In this document: in pieces, positions 4,062-21,270 of the stretch
Layout: every line of letters starts with the position of its first letter
How positions within the stretch are numbered: position 1 is the first letter of the stretch
DNA from: Psammoneis japonica
Taxonomy: Eukaryota
DNA length: 21,920 bases
Assembly (NCBI GenBank): GCA_008632985.1
Contig: QPGO01000186.1
Location: forward strand, 124,001 to 145,920
Direction of reading: 5' to 3'
Notes under the pieces: model-generated
Seen by the model: only the letters and a program-made list of their open reading frames with translations
Database searches by the model: none
What the model was told of the DNA's origin: nothing
Translations under genes and position numbers: made by a program

Positions 4062-4869
4062 GTCGACAGTGCGTGCCAGAGTTGTGCAAACAGCAGCGAA
4101 GTTATTTTTGTCATTGAAAAATCTCGACGCTGAAAATGCTTGTCGAAAATCGGCTTTCGACAGCCACTAAAACAGTTGCAGTGACTGACGAAAGCCTTTT
4201 TTCGACATCTTCGGTTGCAAGAGAGCTGCAGAGCAAGAGCAAAGTCCTGAAACATTGGGTTCCCTGGCAATTTGTGTGATGTTCATGGAGGCACCTCTCA
4301 TCAACGGAAACTGGCAAATGATTTGAAAGATTTTTGCACGCTTTTGGCGTGCATCTTCAGGCAAATCCGAGGATTGAAATGCCCGGCAACTCCAACAACA
4401 CATTGAACCCCAGCTCCATCCACCCCCCGTCCCTCACTCAAAACAAAAACAAGAAATTGATGCACATGCCATGGCTGTTGACAATGGTGAACCACAACCC
4501 AATTCGCCCAAAAGGAAACAAACTCATCTCCACAAGAAAGCCGTCAAGTCCTGCAAGAAGTGCAGGCAACCTCCTGAAGAGATCGTGGTTCACACCGGGG
4601 CTCCGTCCGCCAGCTGAGCCCAAAGAACCAGAAGAAGCCATCACCACACTGGTGCTTTGAAGCAATGCGGCATGAATGTCCTCAAGAGAATGAACCAAGG
4701 TCATTGAAAATGACATCTTGCTCAGCAAAGCTCTTCATGGTGATGACCACAAAGGCGTCATCAACGTGAACAAAGCTCAGAGGCATGCCACAGCTTGTGC
4801 ATTTTTGAGCTTCTTGACATGCCTCCTGAGGAGGAATGGGATGGTCAGAATGGAGCAATGCTCACAATT

Positions 4870-5150
4870 AAAAAAACCTGCACATCTCTCTGGGATCGAA
4901 TGTCAAAGACATCTTGCACAACATCACTCGCGACCATGAAATCGCATCGAGTGCAGCGGTGACAGGATCACAAACAGCACCATTGGCCTGTGTCCAATTG
5001 TGTCTTTTGGAAAAAAAAACCCTTGGCATCTCCCTGGATCAAATGTCAAAGACATCTTGCACAACATCACTCCAACCACGAAATTGCATTGAGTGCAGTG
5101 GCGACAGGATCACAAATGGCGCCCGTTGGCCTGCATCCAAGTTTGTCTTT
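4870..5150 (+). repeat. Diverged tandem duplication, 2 copies, period 143 bp
   Basis: TGTCAAAGACATCTTGCACAACATCACTC occurs at 4901 and 5044. Most differences between copies are CG vs TG/CA or TG vs CA. Confidence 0.85.
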
Positions 5151-5866
5151 CGATTTGCAAGAAGCCAAGATCGTTGGCAACAACATTGAAAAAGGACTTT
5201 TGGCACCCCAGACAGCTCAACTTTGCAATAAGCACCAGCATGAGCAAGGGAAAACTGCACTTGCAAGTGCTTCTGTTGACAACTTGACAGGGCGGGTGGG
5301 TGCCAAGGCACAGAAAGCCAAGACGACAAAACAAGGGAACAAAGATCCTGACTCTCCCTGGTCATGAGGAAGATGCAATTGGACTTGCCAGCTGTTGGTT
5401 TGGTTGGAAACAATTGGAGCACAAAAGAGAGCTGACAGAGATCCTGAAAGAAGTTCGCTGCTGCTCACACCTCCAGTGTGTGCCGTTGCCATCATTCCCA
5501 AACCTCCCATGGCAAGGAGCTGTTGATGATCAGCTTTCGTCTGGCTTTCTCCTTTTGCACCCGGCCTGTCATTGTGAGAAAACAACCACAACAAACACTC
5601 TCAGCCCTCCTGTTGTCTCAGCACACCCTCATCTGGGGACATTTCAACCCACAATTTTGGGCCCAGCTGCAAACAGGGGACATGGCTGTGGCCAGTTTGC
5701 TTCCTGGCACCCCACACATGCAAAGCAAACAATGGCGCCCCAATTCCCACCATGAATGGTGCAGCAGGGACCTCACTTGGGTGCTGCACCGCCATCAGTC
5801 TCTCAAAACGGTGGACGAAATTTTGAAAGCATGCTTGTTCTGGGGCGTTCAAACGTTCAAATCAAA

Positions 5867-6020
5867 ATGGCTGGGGCCAACTCAAACAAAGGTTTCATTG
5901 CTCAAATCATTGGTCCTGCACTGGACATTGAATTCCCATCAGGAGACTTGCCTCCTGTTTTGAGTGCAACAAAATTGAGCTGGAACACGGCAGCACAACC
6001 ATTGTGAGGTGGCTGCAACA
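5867..6020 (+). pseudogene. atpB: 5' fragment of plastid ATP synthase beta subunit (probable nuclear plastid DNA insertion, NUPT)
   Basis: Translates MAGANSNKGFIAQIIGPALDIEFPSGDLPPVLSATK and, after a 1-nt shift, IELEHGSTTIV. This matches the AtpB N-terminal pattern G.I.QIIGPVLDIEFP.G.LP.I..AIKI..IVEVQQ. Frameshifted and truncated. Confidence 0.85.
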
Positions 6021-6237
6021 GTGTCCGTTCAGGTCTTTAGTTCGCACTTTTCATTTTTGACACATGCAATCGCACTTGCACGTGCCAGCTGCGCACAAAG
6101 ACAATCAACACGGTCTGTCTGCCCATCCACCAGAATCTGCATGATGCGACCACTGCTGTGCTGCGGTGCGGCAGCCCGAGACACTGCAGCAAACTCATTC
6201 AACAACACCCGTGCACCCATGCACTGTGGCCTCGAGA

Positions 6238-6495
6238 TTCATCGTGAGACCCTGCAAATGTGGAGGGACCCTCCTGTGGAGCTCTGCGCGAATTTTTGCA
6301 CGTGGTGCTGAAACATGCAGCCCACACACGCAAAACTGGTGCAGCACAGTTTCTGCAACAAAAATCCGAAAAAACGCCCAGTTCGCGAGATGGCTCTGGC
6401 ACAAAACCTGCGTGAACAGTCCCCACACATTCATGCAGAACTCTGCACATTTCCGGGTTGCGGGTCCTTCCACATTTGTGGGGTCCCACGATGAA
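6238..6495. mobile_element. MITE-like element, 258 bp, with 34-bp terminal inverted repeats
   Basis: 6238-6271 TTCATCGTGAGACCCTGCAAATGTGGAGGGACCC vs reverse complement of 6462-6495 TTCATCGTGGGACCCCACAAATGTGGAAGGACCC (30/34). A subterminal inverted repeat lies inside. No clear target-site duplication. Confidence 0.65.
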
Positions 6496-8844
6496 GATGC
6501 CAGACTTCGTCCTTCAATGCGACCTCAGCCTTGACCACCTCTGCCACAATGGTTTTCCCCACCAAACTGTGTGCTCATTCATTGCCAGGGGTCTCGAGCA
6601 GCAAGGGTTGTAGCGGCACCAGCAGTCATGCTGGCATGCAGACGGCCATCCTGTGGGGTCGCACTCCACATCTCAATTGTCACCTCTTTGCCCCTGCAGT
6701 CGAAGTCAGGTTTGGAGTCGGGACATTTTGCCGCCTCGACCATGAACAAAGATTCAACTTTGTCAATGTCAGACAAAAAAGATGACATCTTTTCCTTGAC
6801 CGATTTTGTGATGACCGATGTGCACAAGATGATCAGCTAGGCCATTTGGAAGGGCGTTGAATGGCAGCAAGATTTGTGTTGTCTCCATAGATTGACCAAG
6901 GCAGAATCATGCAAATGCTTTAGCCATGCTGCATTGCACTTGGGCAACAATGCGTTTCCAGATGATGCCACCAATGAAAAACTCTTTTGCCATGCAAAGC
7001 AAGGTTGGTTCTTTCTCAAAGAGGCAGACCAACTTGCCAAGACTCGCATGAAAGAAGCCATGGATTTGGACCAGTGGGCGGTTGCGCAAAACAAACTGGC
7101 TGGGGTTTGGTGCTGAAAAGGATGTCTTGTGCTTGTCCTTTGCAAGGGAATGCAGATGGGGGCTGTCCCATGAACACCGTGCCTTTTCTGCCAACAAACG
7201 CTGACTTGCGTGGTCTGAGTTTTCGTCTTCTAATGCAACAAGGGCCTTTCTTCTGTTCAGCTGGCTGCCACCACACTTGTCACACCTGTCCAATGGGCCC
7301 AATGCAAGGCAGAACAGTTGACTCCATGGTGCAGTCGACTCTGATGCCAGGGCAAAATGCTGACATTCAATGGTGGCAAACATTTGGGATCTGAAACAAT
7401 TTCTAGTTTCAGAAAAAAACATTAGATTGACCTGACTGACATGCAAGTTCATCTCCTAAAAAGCCATTTGAGTTGCTTCTTTTGCTGTTTGTGCTCCAGC
7501 CGCACTTGGCAATGGCCACAATTTTCTCCAATCTAATTTGCCTGAAAAATTTGCAGTGTCATTTTTGTGAAATTCAGTGGAAGAGGCGATGAATGGCTGC
7601 TGTTGTAATTTCACAGATTGCTGTTTGCTGGAGCAGGCACTGTCAGGTGCCGGCGATGCCCGTGGCGCATGAACGGTGGGCGGAAACTTCCGGCAATCCA
7701 AAGGGGAAGATGCTGGGAGAATGTTTGATGAACCCTGTTGGTCACATGTTGAGTCACACCTGCAGCAAGAGTCCCTCATGCAAAGTCAATCAAATTGACA
7801 ATCGTGGCGAAGCATTTCATTTGGCGGTGCATTGGCTTGATTGTTTGCAGCAGGAAGATCCAGCATGCTTGCCACTCTGCCAAGAACTGTGCCACCATCA
7901 AAGCCAAATTGTTGAAGAATTCAAGCACTGTCAAGGTCATGCTGTCGATCTGGGCAGGTGCTTCTTGTTTGATCCCGACAAAGGCAAAATGGCGATGAGC
8001 CCTTCACCTGCCCTTTCAACCATTTTGGATCATTTTGGATGCTGAAGTGAAGATGTGTTGGGTGCAGCAACATCGGCGCTTGGTTAAAAGAAGAAACATC
8101 CTTCATGTTTGTGGGCATTCAACAGCTCATGTGCACAAATGCTCGCACCACCCTTTTGTTGTGTGTTGTTGCTGCCAGTGTCACCATGTGATGCTGCCAC
8201 TGCAACATCTTGCATCTCACAATCACCAACATCTTGCTGCTCACAATCATCGAGGCGCAGTTGTGGCAGTGGCAGCCATGACATTGTCAACAAGTCAACT
8301 GCACATGCACATGATTTGAATCTGTGCCTGGCATGGTCACAAAATGCAAGTTTGTTTTTCAACTGCGCTGGCTTGTCCTTTCTTTTCAACAATCCCGGCT
8401 TCAATGTTGGCATCGTCAACCACCTCTCTGATCTGGATGGCCAAATCCATCCACCAAAATGACACTGTTGGGACAATCTGTTGAGTTGTCATTGAATCCA
8501 CACTGACTTTGTCAAATGCAGCAAACAGCAGCACTGACCTTTGCCTTCTTGACAAAAAGTCCTCCCCTCAAATTCATTTTGTGCATCGCAAAGCCATCAT
8601 TGAGAGCTCCAACTTTGATCCATCAGCAGCAGCCAGAATTTTGATGGCGTTCCCAATGGCGATGATCCAATGCAAAAGAATGATCAAGTCTTTTGACAGT
8701 CTGCTGCATGCGTTGTTGGAACATGGAACAAACAAATCCCAAAGATGCCACCGATGTGGTTTTCCCTCTAGAGAGTCAGTGGACTTGGAAGCAGCAGGGG
8801 CTGCATGCCCATCATTGACATTGATGGGAAAGTCTGGGTCTTCA

Positions 8845-9092
8845 CACTTCATGATGCAAGCTCTCCATCAAAGAAACAAGTGTCCTGAGAGTCTTCTTGG
8901 TCATGCAATCAGCTGGCATTTGATTGGCGGGCAATGCTCAATCAGTGCATTGCCTCTGATGGCTTGGTCATGGACAAGAAACATCTGATGTTCAATGCAC
9001 TGGTTCGCTGCCCAGAGCTCCTCTTTCATCAGTCTCTGGGAGGATTGCAGCCTTGTTGTCTTGTCAGATGGCATTCCGTGTTGCATCACACC
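8845..9092 (-). mobile_element. Ty1/Copia (CoDi-like) remnant, 3' half of RNase H
   Basis: Minus strand reads GCDATRNAI*QDNKAAILPETD, then FLVHDQAIRGNALIEHCP and MPADCMTK in shifted frames. This matches Copia RNase H (YQDNKSAILLE...IEYCPT..M.AD..TKPL). Confidence 0.85.
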
Positions 9093-9459
9093 TGCACTAT
9101 GCTCGAAGAACGAGTGTAAACGAAAGTAGAATGGTGTACGAAAAGTGGAAATTATAAGATTAAATTTTGCTCTGTGATTTTTGGTTTCTCCGAACGAGTT
9201 CTCAATGGCCTAAAGCTTCTGTACTGCTTCTACAGACAAAAGGCCTTTCGGAGAATATATTCGTGACAACAGATTGTCCGGATACGATTGCTATTGACAC
9301 GTAAGATGTCAACATCGTCAATCGATCGTATTTGCAATTCTCGACATCCGATCAACTCTGTGTGATCGTTCTGTCCTTTGTACGCATCCACGACTGTGGT
9401 ACGATTGACATGTGAATAATATATAATCATAAATATGTATATAACAGTCGCATACTGCA
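9093..9459 (-). repeat. 3' LTR of the non-autonomous Gypsy element (367 bp)
   Basis: 360/367 identical to 13464-13830. Terminal inverted repeat TGCACTATGC...GCATACTGCA. Confidence 0.95.
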
Positions 9460-9471: not shown

Positions 9472-12400
9472 ATTGCACATTAGAGTCATTTGTAAGTGGA
9501 TTATTCGACGGACATCGACAGTGTCAATAATGTCTCCACTTTCACTGTATTGTGCCATTAGCAATAACTGTTGTTGTTTTGTATAGGCAATATAGGGCCG
9601 TTCCAATTTCCGAATGTCTTTTGAGAGTGACATTGTTTGTTTCTCACTTAACATGTATATATATAGTATTACGTCGAGCATTCTCATTGACGTTCTTGTT
9701 GACATGAACACAAGGACTAATTGTCCTGGAGCAAGTGTTTTTCCTGACATCGATTGTACATAGCATCGTGCCCAGCACTTAATGTACGCTCTTAATTATG
9801 GCGTTCACTTGCTTGCTTCTTGTGGATTTCATGCAGTTTGGCGGGCTTGCTTTACATGCCATGTTGCTCTGCTGCACTGCCACGTTTCACAAGCAACAAC
9901 AAACGATGGTCAAAGACATTGTGACCATTTCGTCTTGACAATCAATCCTGTGATGGTCATGAATTCCATTGTGGATTTTTTTTTTTTGCACTTCAACCAT
10001 CTATCAGTTGGATTTTAATCGTCATTTGGACGTTTCTTTCTGACACACCGGTGTCATTTTGTCATTCCGAAGGCACTGGTTTCGTGCACCAAGTGGACAA
10101 ATGTCCATTTTTCTTTTCTTTTTCTAGATCTTTGGCACATCTCGTGTGTCGACATGATGCACATTTTAATGTCTTGCCTCGTACATTGTACAACACAACC
10201 GCACGGGTGTTGTGAGATTGTCTTTTGCCAGTGTGAAGTGGGTGCGTATAATGTGCACCAATCTGTCACTGTTTTTTCCTAAATCGCCCTTCAAAAAGGC
10301 GATTTTATCCTTGTGACATGAGCATTTTTCGATCTCGCTCGCCTCCACGAAAAGTGTTCGTATGATGTGTCGCGTCCGACAATTTGGAGGGAATGTCTTC
10401 ATCCCGTTTTAACGGCAGGACATTGTCGCAGGATTCAATTTTCTGTGGCAAGTCGGCTGATCGCGTCTGTCGCGACGATGTTCGCCTTGCCCTCGTTGTG
10501 TTCTAATTCGGGACTGAAGTTGTCAACGTGTGACTTTGTCCGTTGTGTCTTGTGATCCATGTGTGCATAAATCTGTTGGCCAAACAGCATGTTTCGGAAT
10601 TTTGTGAGTGTTTTCACCATGGACAGAAGTTCTTTTTTCCGTTGTGACGCACAACATTGAAATCCGTGCATGACAACAACACAGTTTTTGATTTGATGCA
10701 CTCCACATTTTCGGAGACTTTTCGTTCCGCACTTGTGCTTTTGCCGTTTGACCTTTGTTGAGGTGAATTTGGCTGGCATTGCACAGGAGATCGTTGAGAC
10801 TGCATGTCTCGACAACAGCAACGCATGACAACGAGATGTCGCAGTGTTCTTTGCGTTTTTCTCGTGTTGCGATTGCTTGAATCGCCTCCATTTTCTTTGC
10901 AATCGATTGCATGTCGTTGCGTGTGGAAGTCTTGATAGTTCATTTCAAGTTAAACAGTGAAGGACTTTTGTTGTCAACCTTCTAAGCGACTGTTCTGGTC
11001 GTTTGAATGCCGCGTTGAGCTGTTGCTTGTGCAGGTGACATTTTGAAGTTACTTTTGTCAGGCACAAACGATCACATGTGGTCATTCTGACAACTTCAAA
11101 CCTGTCATGAGTTCACTCAAGTGTTGTGCAAAAACATCTGGGGCTCTGTGGATTCTCATTGGAAGTCCACAGTGCTCATTTTCTCCCCACGGCATGATTT
11201 TCGTGTGAGCACGACGTGTGCTTTTTTTATTTGACATGGTGGCATTCCATGTTTGAATCAAATGGATCACACACATGAAACGTTCTTGCTTCAATGGCAT
11301 TTCCTGAATGTTGGGCAAAGGACACACCACCTGTGTGAACCTCACACTGAGCTTCTGAGTGTCGGATGCGGTCGAACTCGACCTGTTTTCTTCAGACAAT
11401 GAGTCTCAGAGCGACTCATTCAGAGCAACTTCATTCTCAAGACTTCAATCTTTCACAATGGGTCAAACTCCTTTTGATTGGATGCCTCCAAAGACTGTGA
11501 CAGGAGAAGGTTCTCACGCGTCGTGGAATCGCGTCAGATTTTCCACGATGAGATCCACTGATGCTTCCCATGCATTCGTCTGAGGAACTTTTCAAAACGA
11601 TTTCAACCTCTTAAGAAGAAGATTGAGTTGGTTGTGTTCATTTGGGTTAGATGCATCGCCGCAGTTGTCACTTGATTGAGATCGATGGCGTGACAATGTG
11701 AGTCGAGGACCATTGGTTCCATCATCAACTCTGTTCACGGCGTCACATTTTTCAATGTGATCGGTTTTCAGCTTGAAAACATCGGCATCGAAGAGTGTGT
11801 GAACATTCTTCATAAGGTAATTGCTTCTTCCCATTAGATTTCTTCATTTGCGTAGTCCAATGTGACTTGCAGGACTGGACATTAAGTCGCGTCCCATGAT
11901 CACATCATTCGAACCTGAAGAAAATTTGGTGTTTTCAACATTCACTGTTTGCATGTCAGCATGCCTTAAATTTTCGCACAGTGAGAACTGAATTCGGTGT
12001 TTACTATCAGTCGTAAAGAGCTCACCCTTGGTTTCCCAAGTTTTTGGTGGCGGATTCTTGTGTTCTCAACTTTCGCACGAATTTGCGCAAAATTGTGGTT
12101 GACGATGTTCCGTTATCGACAGGAACACGTAGATGCTTTTTTTTTTTTTTTCTCTCCTTTCCCAAGGAAGTGTTCATACAAATGATGACTCCTGGACTAG
12201 TGTGAATTATTTCTGCCTTTTTTCTAGGCTTCCTAACATCCAGCAAAGCATGTAATTCGTGAATAGACCAAAATTATTCTTCGGATTCAGTCTGGATCAT
12301 CCGATCAAATTGGCATTTTTCTTCACTGAGGGTATCAGAATCTGATTCTTTGCCCTTATGCTCTTTTTCTTTGTTCAAGGAACTCGCTTTGAGCATTTTT

Positions 12401-13463: not shown

Positions 13464-13830
13464 TGCACTGTGCTCGAAGAACGAGTGTAAACGAAAGTAG
13501 AATAGTGTACGAAAAGTGGAAATTATAAGATTAAATTTTGCTCTGTGATTTTTGGTTTCTCCGAACGAGTTCTCAATGGCCTAAAGCTTCTGTACTGCTT
13601 CTACAGACAAAAGGCCTTTCGGAGAATATATTCGTGACAACAGATTGTCCGGATACGATTGCTATTGACACGTAAGATGTCAACATCGTCAATCGATCGT
13701 ATTTGCAATTCTCGACATCCGATCAACTCTGTGTGATCGTTCTGTCCTTTGTACGCATCCACGACTGTGGTACGATTGACATATAAATAACATATAATCA
13801 TAAATATGTGTGTAACAGTCGCATACTGCA
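13464..13830 (-). repeat. 5' LTR of the non-autonomous Gypsy element (367 bp)
   Basis: Direct repeat of 9093-9459 with 7 substitutions and no indels, followed by CACC. Confidence 0.95.
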
Positions 13831-18223: not shown

Positions 18224-20728
18224 TTAGAAGACAGGGTGAAGACGGCGGATATTGATACGTTCAGTGACGTGAGGCGAGCGCTGGATGGTAACGGTTCCAT
18301 TGGTATGGACACGTACGATACGGAAAGGACCATCTTTGGTGTTGAGTTTGCGTTGGATGTCTTTGGTCATAACGAAGACTTGATCGCCGATGTTGTAGTC
18401 GTAAGTAAGACGTTTTGCGTTTTCGCGGAGATTATTGCGTAGGACATCGCGCTTGCGACGGGTATTAATCATTTTCCAGTTCGCAAGATAAGTAGCAGAA
18501 ATGACCATGTCTCGACCGAAGACAATTTGTCCGGGAGACGACATAAGGGCAGTATGGTAGGTACTGCGCAAGGCCCATGCAACGGATTGCAAAATTCCAT
18601 GAATTGTGTCTTCATCATGATCGCGAGAAGGGAGATCCATCGCACGGAGAGAATCGGCTATTACTTGATGAATACGTTCAACGAACGCGTTGGCTTGAGG
18701 ATTCTTGATTGTTGTAGGTTTCGGTTTAACACCATAACTGTAGAGGAGATCTGTAAACTCGGAAGTGAATTCGGAACCGTTGTCATAAATGACAATTTCT
18801 GGTCGCGGATAGCGACAAAACCACTCGCGATCGACGATAAGTGAAATGTCTTCGGACGTTTTGAACTTATAGTTCGCGAGTTCGACCCAACGGGTTGCGA
18901 CATCAATAATTGAAACGGCTCTGATTTTGCGATCGACACCATTTTTGTCGGCACACGTCCAGGGACCGAAAAGATCGACTTGAGTTGCCTGCCAAGGTTT
19001 ATAAGTAGTATCTGGAAGAGGTAATTCGCCATAGTTTGCCGTAGCACGCTTGGATTTGGAACACGTGCGGCACTTACGGACAAAAGTGCGGACTTTCGTC
19101 TGCATGTCGCGAATGTAAAAATGTGAAGCCAAAGTTTGGCAGGTGCGATTGGCACCAGGGTGGCAGAGAGTTTCATGGTGCCACCGTAGAACTGCAGGAA
19201 AAAGCGTTGGAGGGAGGACAATCTTGTTCTTGTAAAGGACAATCTGTTTTCCATTGAACAGTTCGGCTGAGCAGGATTCGGACTTGTCGAGTCGTTGCTG
19301 AAGAGCAGAATTTTTTTTCTGATGGTCGGCGACAATGTCGAAAGTAATGGGGAATGTCGAAGGATCGATTTCCAACGAAGTCATTTCCTCGTAATCGCTT
19401 TGATCGACTTGGACAATGGGATGGCGGCTCAAAAAATCAGCCACGACATTCTCATGGCCTGGCAGGCACTCGAAAGAGCAATCGCACTCCTCGAGAAGTA
19501 AACGCCAGCGTTTGACGCGTTCTGACTTGAATTTGTCAAATGCAAGATTTTTGTGATCGGCAAATGGGTGGCATCGATGACCAAAAAGGATGCTTTTGAA
19601 ATTTTCGGTCGTTTCCACGAGCGACAGCAGCTCTTTTTCCATTGTCGTGTAGTTTCGTTGCGCTTGAGACAATTTTCGGCTGTAGAATGCAATTGGCCAT
19701 TCGCCATCATCAAAATCTTGAGCAATCACTGCACCAAGTTGACAATCACTCGCATCCGGATAGATCTTGAAAGGTTGAGAGAAGTCGGGGAATCGGAGGA
19801 GGATTTCGCGCGCCACAATTTTTTTCATCTGATTGAAAGCTTCCGTGTGGACGTCAGTCCACTTGAATTTGACTTTGTCTGATGACAGCGCAGTTAAGGG
19901 CGCAAGAGTGTGGCTGCGTCGGCACCACAATTTCTTGCAATGATTCACGAACCCGATGAAACCACGCAATTGTCGACGGTTTTGAGGGCGAGCGAAGCAA
20001 AGTGAGGGTGGGATTTTCTTTTTCTGAGGCTGAGTGCCTTTTGCAGTCATGGTGCAGCCCAAGCAGTCGACGGTCTTGGCGGCGAGATGGGATTCTTCGA
20101 CATGTGCGTGAAGATTGTTCGCGAGGAGCCGTTGCAAGACGAGTTTGAGTCGTTGACAGTGATGGTTGAAGTTGTTCTTGGCAAAGAGGATGACATTGTC
20201 GATGCAGACTATGATGTCTTCCATGTCATGAAAAATGTCTGTCATGCAAGCTTGAAAAATGTCGCTTGCCGGTTTGATTCCTTGCGGCAGGCGGTTGCAG
20301 CAATGCTTGCCCCACGGCAGGATGATGCCGCAGAGTTTTTTTGACTCGTCGTCAAGCACGAAGTGACAGTAGCCTCGGTTGAGGTCCAAACATGTCGCAT
20401 GGGCAAAGCCGTTCATTTTCCATGCGACGTCGTCGATGACAGGCAGTGGATGTGGATGCCGTTCGAGACACTCGTTGAGTTTCCGTAAATCGGACAAGAA
20501 ATGGATGCCACCGCTTTTCTTCGATCGGAAAAGACAGGATGCGTCCCAAGGAGAGTGAAGTTTGCGCGTGATGACATCGATTTTTTCCAATTCATCCACT
20601 TCTTTGCGAGCCATGGGACACAACGCTTGCGGAACAGTGCAAGCTTTCGCACAGCATGGACGCGATCCTGGTTTCAGGGTCAAATGGACGGGTTTACCGG
20701 GTGCAGCTCCAAGTGTGCCATCGAACAA
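18224..20728 (-). pseudogene. pol: Gypsy pol (RT-RNase H-integrase), open for 834 codons but with a mutated RT active site (CIDN for YIDD)
   Basis: RT motifs LDLNRGY, RLPQG and VCIDN; RNase H DASD..LGAV and EKELL; integrase HHCC finger, VDLFGP, DNGSEF and NPQANAFVER. Confidence 0.93.
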
Positions 20729-20832
20729 TTGCGGGTCGTCCGAAGAGTTCGATGAGTTGGTGCTGTTGATCGTTCAAGGTGTTTGCAGCGTAGAACCATG
20801 TCGCGACAATTGTGCTTGTCGTGCATTGCTCG

Positions 20833-21270
20833 TCATACCTCGAACCTGACGGTTGACGGCATTCTGGAAGAACTTGGGCAATTCAGCATCGCCGGGATGA
20901 ATTGCATTAACTTCGACTTGGTCGAAAGAGCCCTTGGATCGCATGGATAGGGTACATCGTCCCACGTGATTGTTTGATGTCGAAAATCAAAAACGAGTCC
21001 CATTTCTGTGGCGGTTTTTCTTCCGATGACAATGTCGTGTTTTCCTGCGGCTTTGTCTTCCACACAAGCATCGACGGAAACCTTCTTGGACGATGCGAAG
21101 TCTGGGAACTTCAATGTCAGCGTCGCAATCTCGTGTAGATTAACGGCACTGTAACGGCCTTTAACGGGAACGTCATTTACGGATTTTGTGAGGAATCCCG
21201 CGAAGGGCTGAGCGCTTCACAAAATTGCGATTTGCGCCGGATCGAGTAGCAACACGGAACTTGTGCATTC
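20833..21270 (-). pseudogene. Gypsy aspartic protease region, frameshifted
   Basis: LLD(S)GANRNFV at ~21220-21255 needs a 1-nt correction. KHDIVIGRKTATEMGLVFDF..ITWD follows downstream. Confidence 0.75.

Follow-up and report, generated by a model that had tools for sequence, protein, structure and literature searches.

The question raised by this locus is how a piece of plastid DNA came to lie in a diatom genome assembly without a single TpA dinucleotide, and whether the TpA was lost there or had never been present. The locus belongs to Psammoneis japonica (assembly GCA_008632985.1, contig QPGO01000186.1, positions 124,001 to 145,920 of the forward strand); these 21,920 nt, which were analyzed as a whole, are referred to below as the window, and all coordinates are counted from its first nucleotide. 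The first-pass annotation had described positions 5867 to 6020 as a fragment of plastid atpB devoid of TpA, and the count bears this out: the segment holds 0 TpA against 10.3 expected, and of 5,000 shuffled versions none reached 0.

The translation of positions 5867 to 6004 matches the N terminus of the beta subunit of F1 ATP synthase. In a search against solved structures, the top match is a chloroplast atpB (E = 3.2e-5), and the match to the Pfam domain ATP-synt_ab_N is weaker than the cutoff (E = 0.16). An exhaustive search of 1.84 billion representative proteins returned 78 matches, the genuine ones being short N termini of diatom-type atpB with 55 to 71% identity. The protein at the top rank overall in that search, P0001, proved on inspection to be a repeat protein, and the few long matches made up of multiple stretches are spurious. 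A word-indexed protein search with the 46-residue piece found nothing among longer proteins. At the nucleotide level, BLASTN of window positions 5300 to 6700 against plastid loci recovers about 70 to 77% identity over up to 221 nt, starting upstream of the start codon, and a transition-tolerant local alignment pairs window positions 5777 to 6022 with positions 2374 to 2616 of locus L007, the atpB protein of which is 96 to 97% identical to the plastid atpB of Bacillariaceae (Nitzschia, Cylindrotheca, and Psammodictyon).

Taken at its full extent, the feature is a 246-nt segment that is collinear with diatom plastid DNA and consists of some 90 nt of upstream spacer followed by the first 52 or so codons of atpB (Table 1). 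As the homology continues upstream of the ATG, the feature is wider than the 5867 to 6020 first delimited. Within the spacer, positions 5824 to 5866 can be aligned to all 78 of the plastid sequences compared below, and positions 5777 to 5823 align without gaps to L007-type loci; in the part from 5794 to 5823, 20 of the 30 bases are identical to those of L007-type spacers and 6 further ones differ by T>C or A>G. Downstream, the homology to plastid DNA stops at about 6022.

Beta subunits are conserved proteins, and bacterial and mitochondrial chains do appear further down the list of PDB matches (E = 6e-4 to 1), which raises the alternative that the piece is not of plastid origin at all but a fragment of a bacterial atpD or of a nuclear gene for the mitochondrial subunit. 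Against this, the top matches are of the plastid type, and the match lacks a presequence, starting at the plastid start codon and, in the DNA, extending into the plastid spacer. This spacer homology already refutes a bacterial or mitochondrial source, the chance of which we regard as negligible, and the initial assignment to plastid atpB rather than to a TpA-poor bacterial atpD stands.

The piece is a dead nuclear relic of plastid DNA. It is truncated at about codon 52, carries a 1-nt deletion at 5969/5970 and more indels near 6005 to 6015, and has a stop at 6005 to 6007 in the original atpB frame; past the 1-nt deletion, the plastid reading resumes in another frame as KIELEHGSTTIV, not KLSWNTAAQPL. 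Its nuclear setting is inferred from neighbors on the same contig, namely, a Ty3/gypsy pol frame (18224 to 20770), a TspO gene, and a quinone-reductase-like gene with diatom nuclear proteins as its closest relatives (63 to 73% identity). BLASTN and TBLASTX comparisons of the whole window with 80 plastid loci (which covered the DNA up to 2.5 kb from atpB) detected no second plastid-like piece, and no second copy of the relic is found within the window.

Table 1. Features of the plastid-derived relic and of the TpA-depleted DNA around it (window coordinates)
Feature	Coordinates	Strand	Basis
Mutated domain: TpA depleted, CpG poor, with CpA/TpG excess	4169-9097		15 TA in 4,929 nt
808-nt tract without a single TA that encloses the relic and extends beyond both of the relic's ends	5230-6037		0 TA versus 48.7 expected from base composition
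Relic of plastid spacer/5' leader upstream of atpB	5777-5866	+	Plastid alignments
Relic of atpB codons 1 to ~52	5867-6022	+	Protein matches and plastid DNA alignments

For the direction of the changes, window positions 5824 to 6022 were aligned with 77 metagenomic plastid loci and the corresponding stretch of the organism's own plastid, i.e., with 78 plastid sequences. The 80 plastid loci in use are the best of at least 551 relatives found by a metagenome contig scan with an alignment of N termini, ranked by likeness to one query; the 77-locus sample is accordingly biased and lacks N-terminal variants like the one in P0009. Across the 78 sequences, the homologous 181 to 183 nt contain 18 to 28 TpA (median, 24), versus 0 in the window, and the G+C content is 0.24 to 0.29, versus 0.46 in the relic. 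We read ancestral states from columns conserved in at least 90% of the plastids, in which the ancestral state is independent of the donor lineage. All 16 of the TpA dinucleotides conserved at this level have been lost, having become CA in seven cases, TG in five, CG in two, and CT and TT in one each; two of the 16 were lost through a transversion.

The same columns reveal a strong dependence on context. With the strands pooled and sites sorted by the 5' neighbor of the A, A>G or T>C changes affect 17 of the 32 sites preceded by T, 3 of the 27 preceded by A, and none of those preceded by C (0/3) or G (0/5). Substitutions are concentrated at TpA, with 17/32 TpA sites changed versus 3/35 other A/T sites (Fisher test, p = 1.1e-4). 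Altogether, 20 such changes are seen among the 67 conserved A/T sites with known context, next to 2 changes of any kind among 29 conserved C/G sites; the other 27 C/G sites are kept, and one of the two changes is a G>A at a plastid CpG (5897). A direct comparison of the relic with locus L002 is similarly lopsided, with 43 changes of the T>C or A>G type against 2 of the C>T or G>A type. The direction is TpA to CpA/TpG, the ancestor being inferred from the columns conserved across the 78 plastid sequences. As the CA and TG outcomes alternate along the relic, both strands must have been hit many times.

Two individual sites had been singled out earlier as examples of this process. The conserved GPVLD motif reads GPALD in the relic, which was attributed to a change from GTA to GCA, and the T in question, at position 5919, is indeed invariant in the plastids. 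The second example, according to which AIKI had become ATK through a change from ATA to ACA, does not hold as described: the plastids have ATT here, with AAA as the next codon, and one T was deleted and the other changed to C, with a shift of the frame. The T that became C beside this 1-nt deletion sat in a TpA spanning the codon border.

Some changes fall outside the main context. Relative to the consensus, 17 T>C or A>G changes are at sites other than TpA, ApA/TpT steps accounting for 14; a second, weaker context or mistakes in the reconstructed ancestor may be behind these changes. The string TAAA(A) now reads TGGG(G) at two places (5843 to 5845 and 5873 to 5876). We did not adopt an extended ApA context, given that ApA does not stand out from C/GpA (p = 0.26 to 1), that AA has an observed/expected ratio (o/e) of 1.31 in the surrounding block, and that the N-terminal codons of the donor may have differed; a minor ApA component may nonetheless accompany the TpA restriction. 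Two conserved plastid TpA are now CG (5846 to 5847 and 5854 to 5855), with both the T and the A changed, so that either both strands were hit at once or, once a first hit has occurred, TpA is no longer strictly required.

The relic does not stand alone in its composition. Along the window, DNA with ordinary dinucleotide frequencies alternates sharply with nearly TpA-free blocks that have an excess of CpA and TpG, and the relic lies in one such block, in which base composition predicts 321 TA and the o/e of 0.66 found elsewhere in the window predicts 212. Over positions 4200 to 9050, the o/e values are 0.05 for TA, 1.66 for CA, 1.78 for TG, and 0.41 for CG, whereas TA has an o/e of 0.66 outside the block, in the gene-bearing parts of the window, and the edges of the block are sharp. 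On either side of the relic, the TA-free tract continues beyond the border into unrelated DNA; hence, the relic was mutated in place together with its surroundings. The designation of positions 4169 to 9097 as a transposon graveyard is unproven: a Pfam analysis of 43 open reading frames gave no transposon domain there.

These figures also bear on the alternative that the relic merely followed ordinary compositional drift, be it a nuclear avoidance of TpA, GC-biased gene conversion, or decay of methylated CpG alone. The rest of the window is likewise lowish in TpA (o/e, 0.66), the CpG depletion of the block (0.41) would by itself add CA and TG, and the relic does contain one G>A at a plastid CpG (5897). 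Nevertheless, a drop in TA o/e from 0.66 to 0.05 across sharp edges and a context dependence as steep as that of the conserved columns (17/32 versus 3/35) both tell against such drift; furthermore, GC-biased conversion would not single out TpA, and CpG decay cannot remove TpA. We therefore consider drift a highly improbable explanation next to mutation of the relic in place by a process directed at TpA.

Several further elements lie in the block. A tandem repeat occupies positions 4883 to 5150 (unit of 143 nt, 1.9 copies, 84% matches). An open frame on the forward strand (7593 to 8042) matches monomeric isocitrate dehydrogenase (PF03971; E = 3.2e-19) over the last ~130 residues of that enzyme and constitutes a second gene fragment in the block, with a single TA (7606); it could provide another before-and-after pair if the intact gene were found. 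Long open frames of 100 to 180 residues occur in all six frames of the block. Since the loss of TpA removes the stop codons TAA and TAG, such frames arise everywhere, and the length of an open frame is therefore no evidence of a gene in this DNA. Elsewhere in the window, the Ty3/gypsy pol frame, which runs on the reverse strand for 848 residues and encodes the reverse transcriptase, RNase H, and integrase, overlaps a TpA-poor region (o/e of 0.1 to 0.2 over 19500 to 21000) in which CpG is normal (o/e of 1.1 to 1.3), unlike in the low-CpG block that harbors the relic. The loss of TpA is thus separable from that of CpG.

The window offers a second view of the process. Positions 9093 to 9446 and 13464 to 13817 form a pair of direct repeats of ~354 nt that differ at 7 positions, and all seven differences are of TA versus TG or CA, each copy holding some of the mutated states. 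The pair is likely to represent the two long terminal repeats (LTRs) of a young 4.7-kb element. The interior of this element is strongly depleted in TpA at 10500 to 11500, and the LTRs are not. The two LTRs of a retrotransposon are identical at integration, from which it follows that the TA versus TG/CA differences arose afterwards, in DNA. That 7 of 7 differences fall at TpA is a hint of recent activity.

It is in this light that an origin by RNA editing has to be weighed, in which an ADAR-like enzyme would have edited a transcript at TpA before its reverse transcription and integration. The start of the relic ~90 nt upstream of the ATG could correspond to an mRNA 5' leader, and ADARs favor a U before the edited A, as stated in a recent preprint (Mettrop et al., bioRxiv 10.64898/2026.01.13.699255). 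Yet the changes are on both strands, with CA and TG interleaved, the TA-free tract runs unbroken into unrelated flanks on both sides of the relic, and the LTR pair, with its TpA-only differences (7/7), points to changes made in DNA after integration. In view of these three observations, we judge RNA editing very unlikely and retain mutation of the integrated DNA itself.

A further issue is the identity of the donor. Had the relic been copied recently from the present plastome, that plastome would be its exact ancestor, and the piece is indeed of the plastid type and of typical size for a nuclear plastid insertion (NUPT). For the comparison, the organism's plastid was taken to be a single contig with a depth of 841 from the one public sample, comprising three runs, that carries the window's stretch. 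This contig aligns over positions 2457 to 2980 of L002 with 74 differences, and its sequence for 2457 to 2748 was rebuilt from the difference table; up to 5 of the 74 differences of run X1 are unlisted in the rebuilt sequence and may fall near the ends, and the 24 differences listed in 2490 to 2641 equal the count for run X3, which spans that stretch.

The own plastid, so rebuilt, aligns to the relic over 5824 to 6022 and resembles it less closely than do many other diatom plastids. Its identity to the relic is 67.5% (78.9% with the TpA changes forgiven), with 17 transversions, whereas L002 attains 72.2% (85.1% with the TpA changes forgiven), with 9 transversions. When all 78 sequences are ranked by their transversions to the relic, the own plastid stands in the middle, with 21, near the median of 20 (range, 10 to 31). 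In 19 scored columns, the own plastid differs from the diatom consensus; of these, the relic carries the own state unambiguously in 0, the consensus state in 11, an ambiguous state in 4, and neither in 4. At sites diagnostic between the own plastid and L007, the relic shares 0 states with the former and 13 with the latter (p = 2e-4), and in such own-versus-locus comparisons 56 of the 77 loci beat the own plastid. In the 30 nt of spacer further upstream, no in-register alignment of the own plastid to the relic was obtained, unlike with L007-type spacers.

In a likelihood tree in which the C and G of the window were treated as ambiguous, the relic groups with L016 and L020 within a clade of 10 members (support, 75). 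The own plastid belongs to a different clade, likewise of 10 members (support, 79), where its terminal branch measures 0.13 substitutions per site. Constraining the two to be sisters yields a shared stem of length 0.0, against an own terminal branch of 0.13 to 0.15. Nonetheless, an AU test with the C and G of the window masked did not reject their sisterhood (p = 0.43), for which reason we do not claim a foreign origin.

Several of these results tell against a recent copy: the low identity and the 17 transversions, the middling rank among the 78 sequences, the absence from the relic of all 11 unambiguous own-specific states, the own spacer being out of register further upstream where L007-type spacers are in register, and the zero-length stem beside a terminal branch of 0.13 to 0.15. 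It is certain that the relic was not copied recently from the present plastome; its reading as a recent NUPT of that plastome is largely refuted and, in our estimation, barely tenable. The earlier idea that the plastid gene supplies a known ancestor, by which direction could be tested directly, thus survives in part: the direction can be read, as TpA to CpA/TpG, from the conserved plastid columns, but the present plastome of the organism is not the direct ancestor (67.5% identity; 0/11 own-specific states). As to what the source was, an old transfer from the plastid of the host lineage itself has, in our assessment, somewhat less than an even chance of being correct. DNA from the plastid of another diatom lineage is a tentative reading, rather more doubtful than probable. 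Other causes, for instance a plastid contig mismatched with the nuclear genome, are unlikely.

On the basis of these observations, the explanation that best accounts for the locus as a whole is that it is a nuclear relic of plastid DNA from which TpA was stripped in place after arrival, to which we assign a probability of roughly 0.8. According to this model, a plastid piece comprising the spacer and the first ~52 codons of atpB would have arrived in what is a 4.9-kb silent block. A nuclear mutation process would then have acted on the DNA where it lay, affecting both strands throughout the block and converting the A of TpA to G (seen as T to C when the other strand was hit), and would have run until no TpA remained in the relic, lifting its G+C content from ~0.24 to 0.29 to the present 0.46. 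The chemistry can be proposed only from the pattern of changes: A>G substitutions on either strand, confined to TpA and made in DNA in place, fit the deamination of adenine to inosine in DNA, and the most likely agent, which we consider an even bet, is an enzyme deaminating adenine within TpA and aimed at silenced or foreign chromatin. The loss of CpG alongside that of TpA in the block suggests that the process is directed at methylated, silent chromatin.

The signature itself is already known, as it matches one reported in the 2026 preprint on the chlorarachniophyte Bigelowiella natans. According to that preprint, integrated giant-virus and virophage DNA undergoes TpA-restricted hypermutation in this alga, one of the targets being single copy and the viral region having a Rho of 0.45; adenine deamination is proposed, with an ADAT2-like candidate named; and the long-term traces are TpA-poor, CpA- and TpG-rich clusters in which transposon and foreign domains are overrepresented (Mettrop et al., bioRxiv 10.64898/2026.01.13.699255). 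The two systems are alike in that the changes consist nearly entirely of A>G and T>C, turn TpA into TpG/CpA, and are confined to defined regions. They differ in that the diatom is of an unrelated lineage and is near saturation, with a TA o/e of 0.05 against the Rho of 0.45, and in that its block also displays loss of CpG and includes a plastid-derived relic among the targets. Moreover, the rates in B. natans were measured in mutation accumulation lines, whereas the diatom relic displays the end state only. A literature search for a TpA-erasing process in diatoms found no description of one.

A comparison with repeat-induced point mutation (RIP) is also instructive. RIP, known from Neurospora and other ascomycetes, proceeds by C>T changes, creates TpA, and is defined by its dependence on duplication. 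The diatom process resembles it as a dense, regional transition mutation of silent DNA in place with a strong dinucleotide skew, the target of RIP being transposon-rich DNA; its chemistry is the opposite, in that A:T>G:C changes destroy TpA and 27 of the 29 conserved C/G sites are kept. For targeting by location rather than by repeat pairing, as raised in the first-pass annotation, the evidence is indirect: the TA-free DNA extends past the relic on both sides, and the window has no second copy of the relic. As for NUPTs, a survey lists 14 in Phaeodactylum, totaling 4 kb, and 8 in Thalassiosira pseudonana, totaling 1.6 kb (Smith et al. 2011, PMC3101015). The relic conforms to such insertions as a short, collinear, decayed, and nonfunctional piece of coding and noncoding plastid DNA, and its 246 nt are near the diatom averages tabulated there. 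It departs from the usual NUPTs in mismatching the host plastome, all of the unambiguous lineage-specific states of which it lacks, and in that a single transition, specific to one context, dominates its decay in place of the usual spectrum.

What the relic adds is a polarity. Pairs of copies such as the LTRs disclose that sites differ, not which state is older, whereas a plastid reference, never having been exposed to the nuclear process, fixes the direction as TpA to CpA/TpG at 16 of 16 conserved TpA. Because DNA that does not derive from a transposon was mutated along with its surroundings, the locus speaks in favor of a process targeted to a region or to a chromatin state. What is new here is that the relic does not derive recently from the organism's present plastome and is either ancient or from another diatom lineage; this mismatch raises the question of whether the depleted blocks hold foreign DNA. 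A doubtful further extension would have the relic acquired horizontally from a diatom lineage nearer to the L016/L007-type plastomes than to that of the host. The TpA mutator, like the one proposed for B. natans, would then mark and erase incoming DNA of foreign origin irrespective of the number of copies, and distant algae would have a deaminase-type genome immunity in common. Should the process be identical to the one in the chlorarachniophyte, it would be present in two distant algal lineages and would be a candidate for a widespread mutator with adenine deaminase chemistry that serves in genome defense or is linked to silencing.
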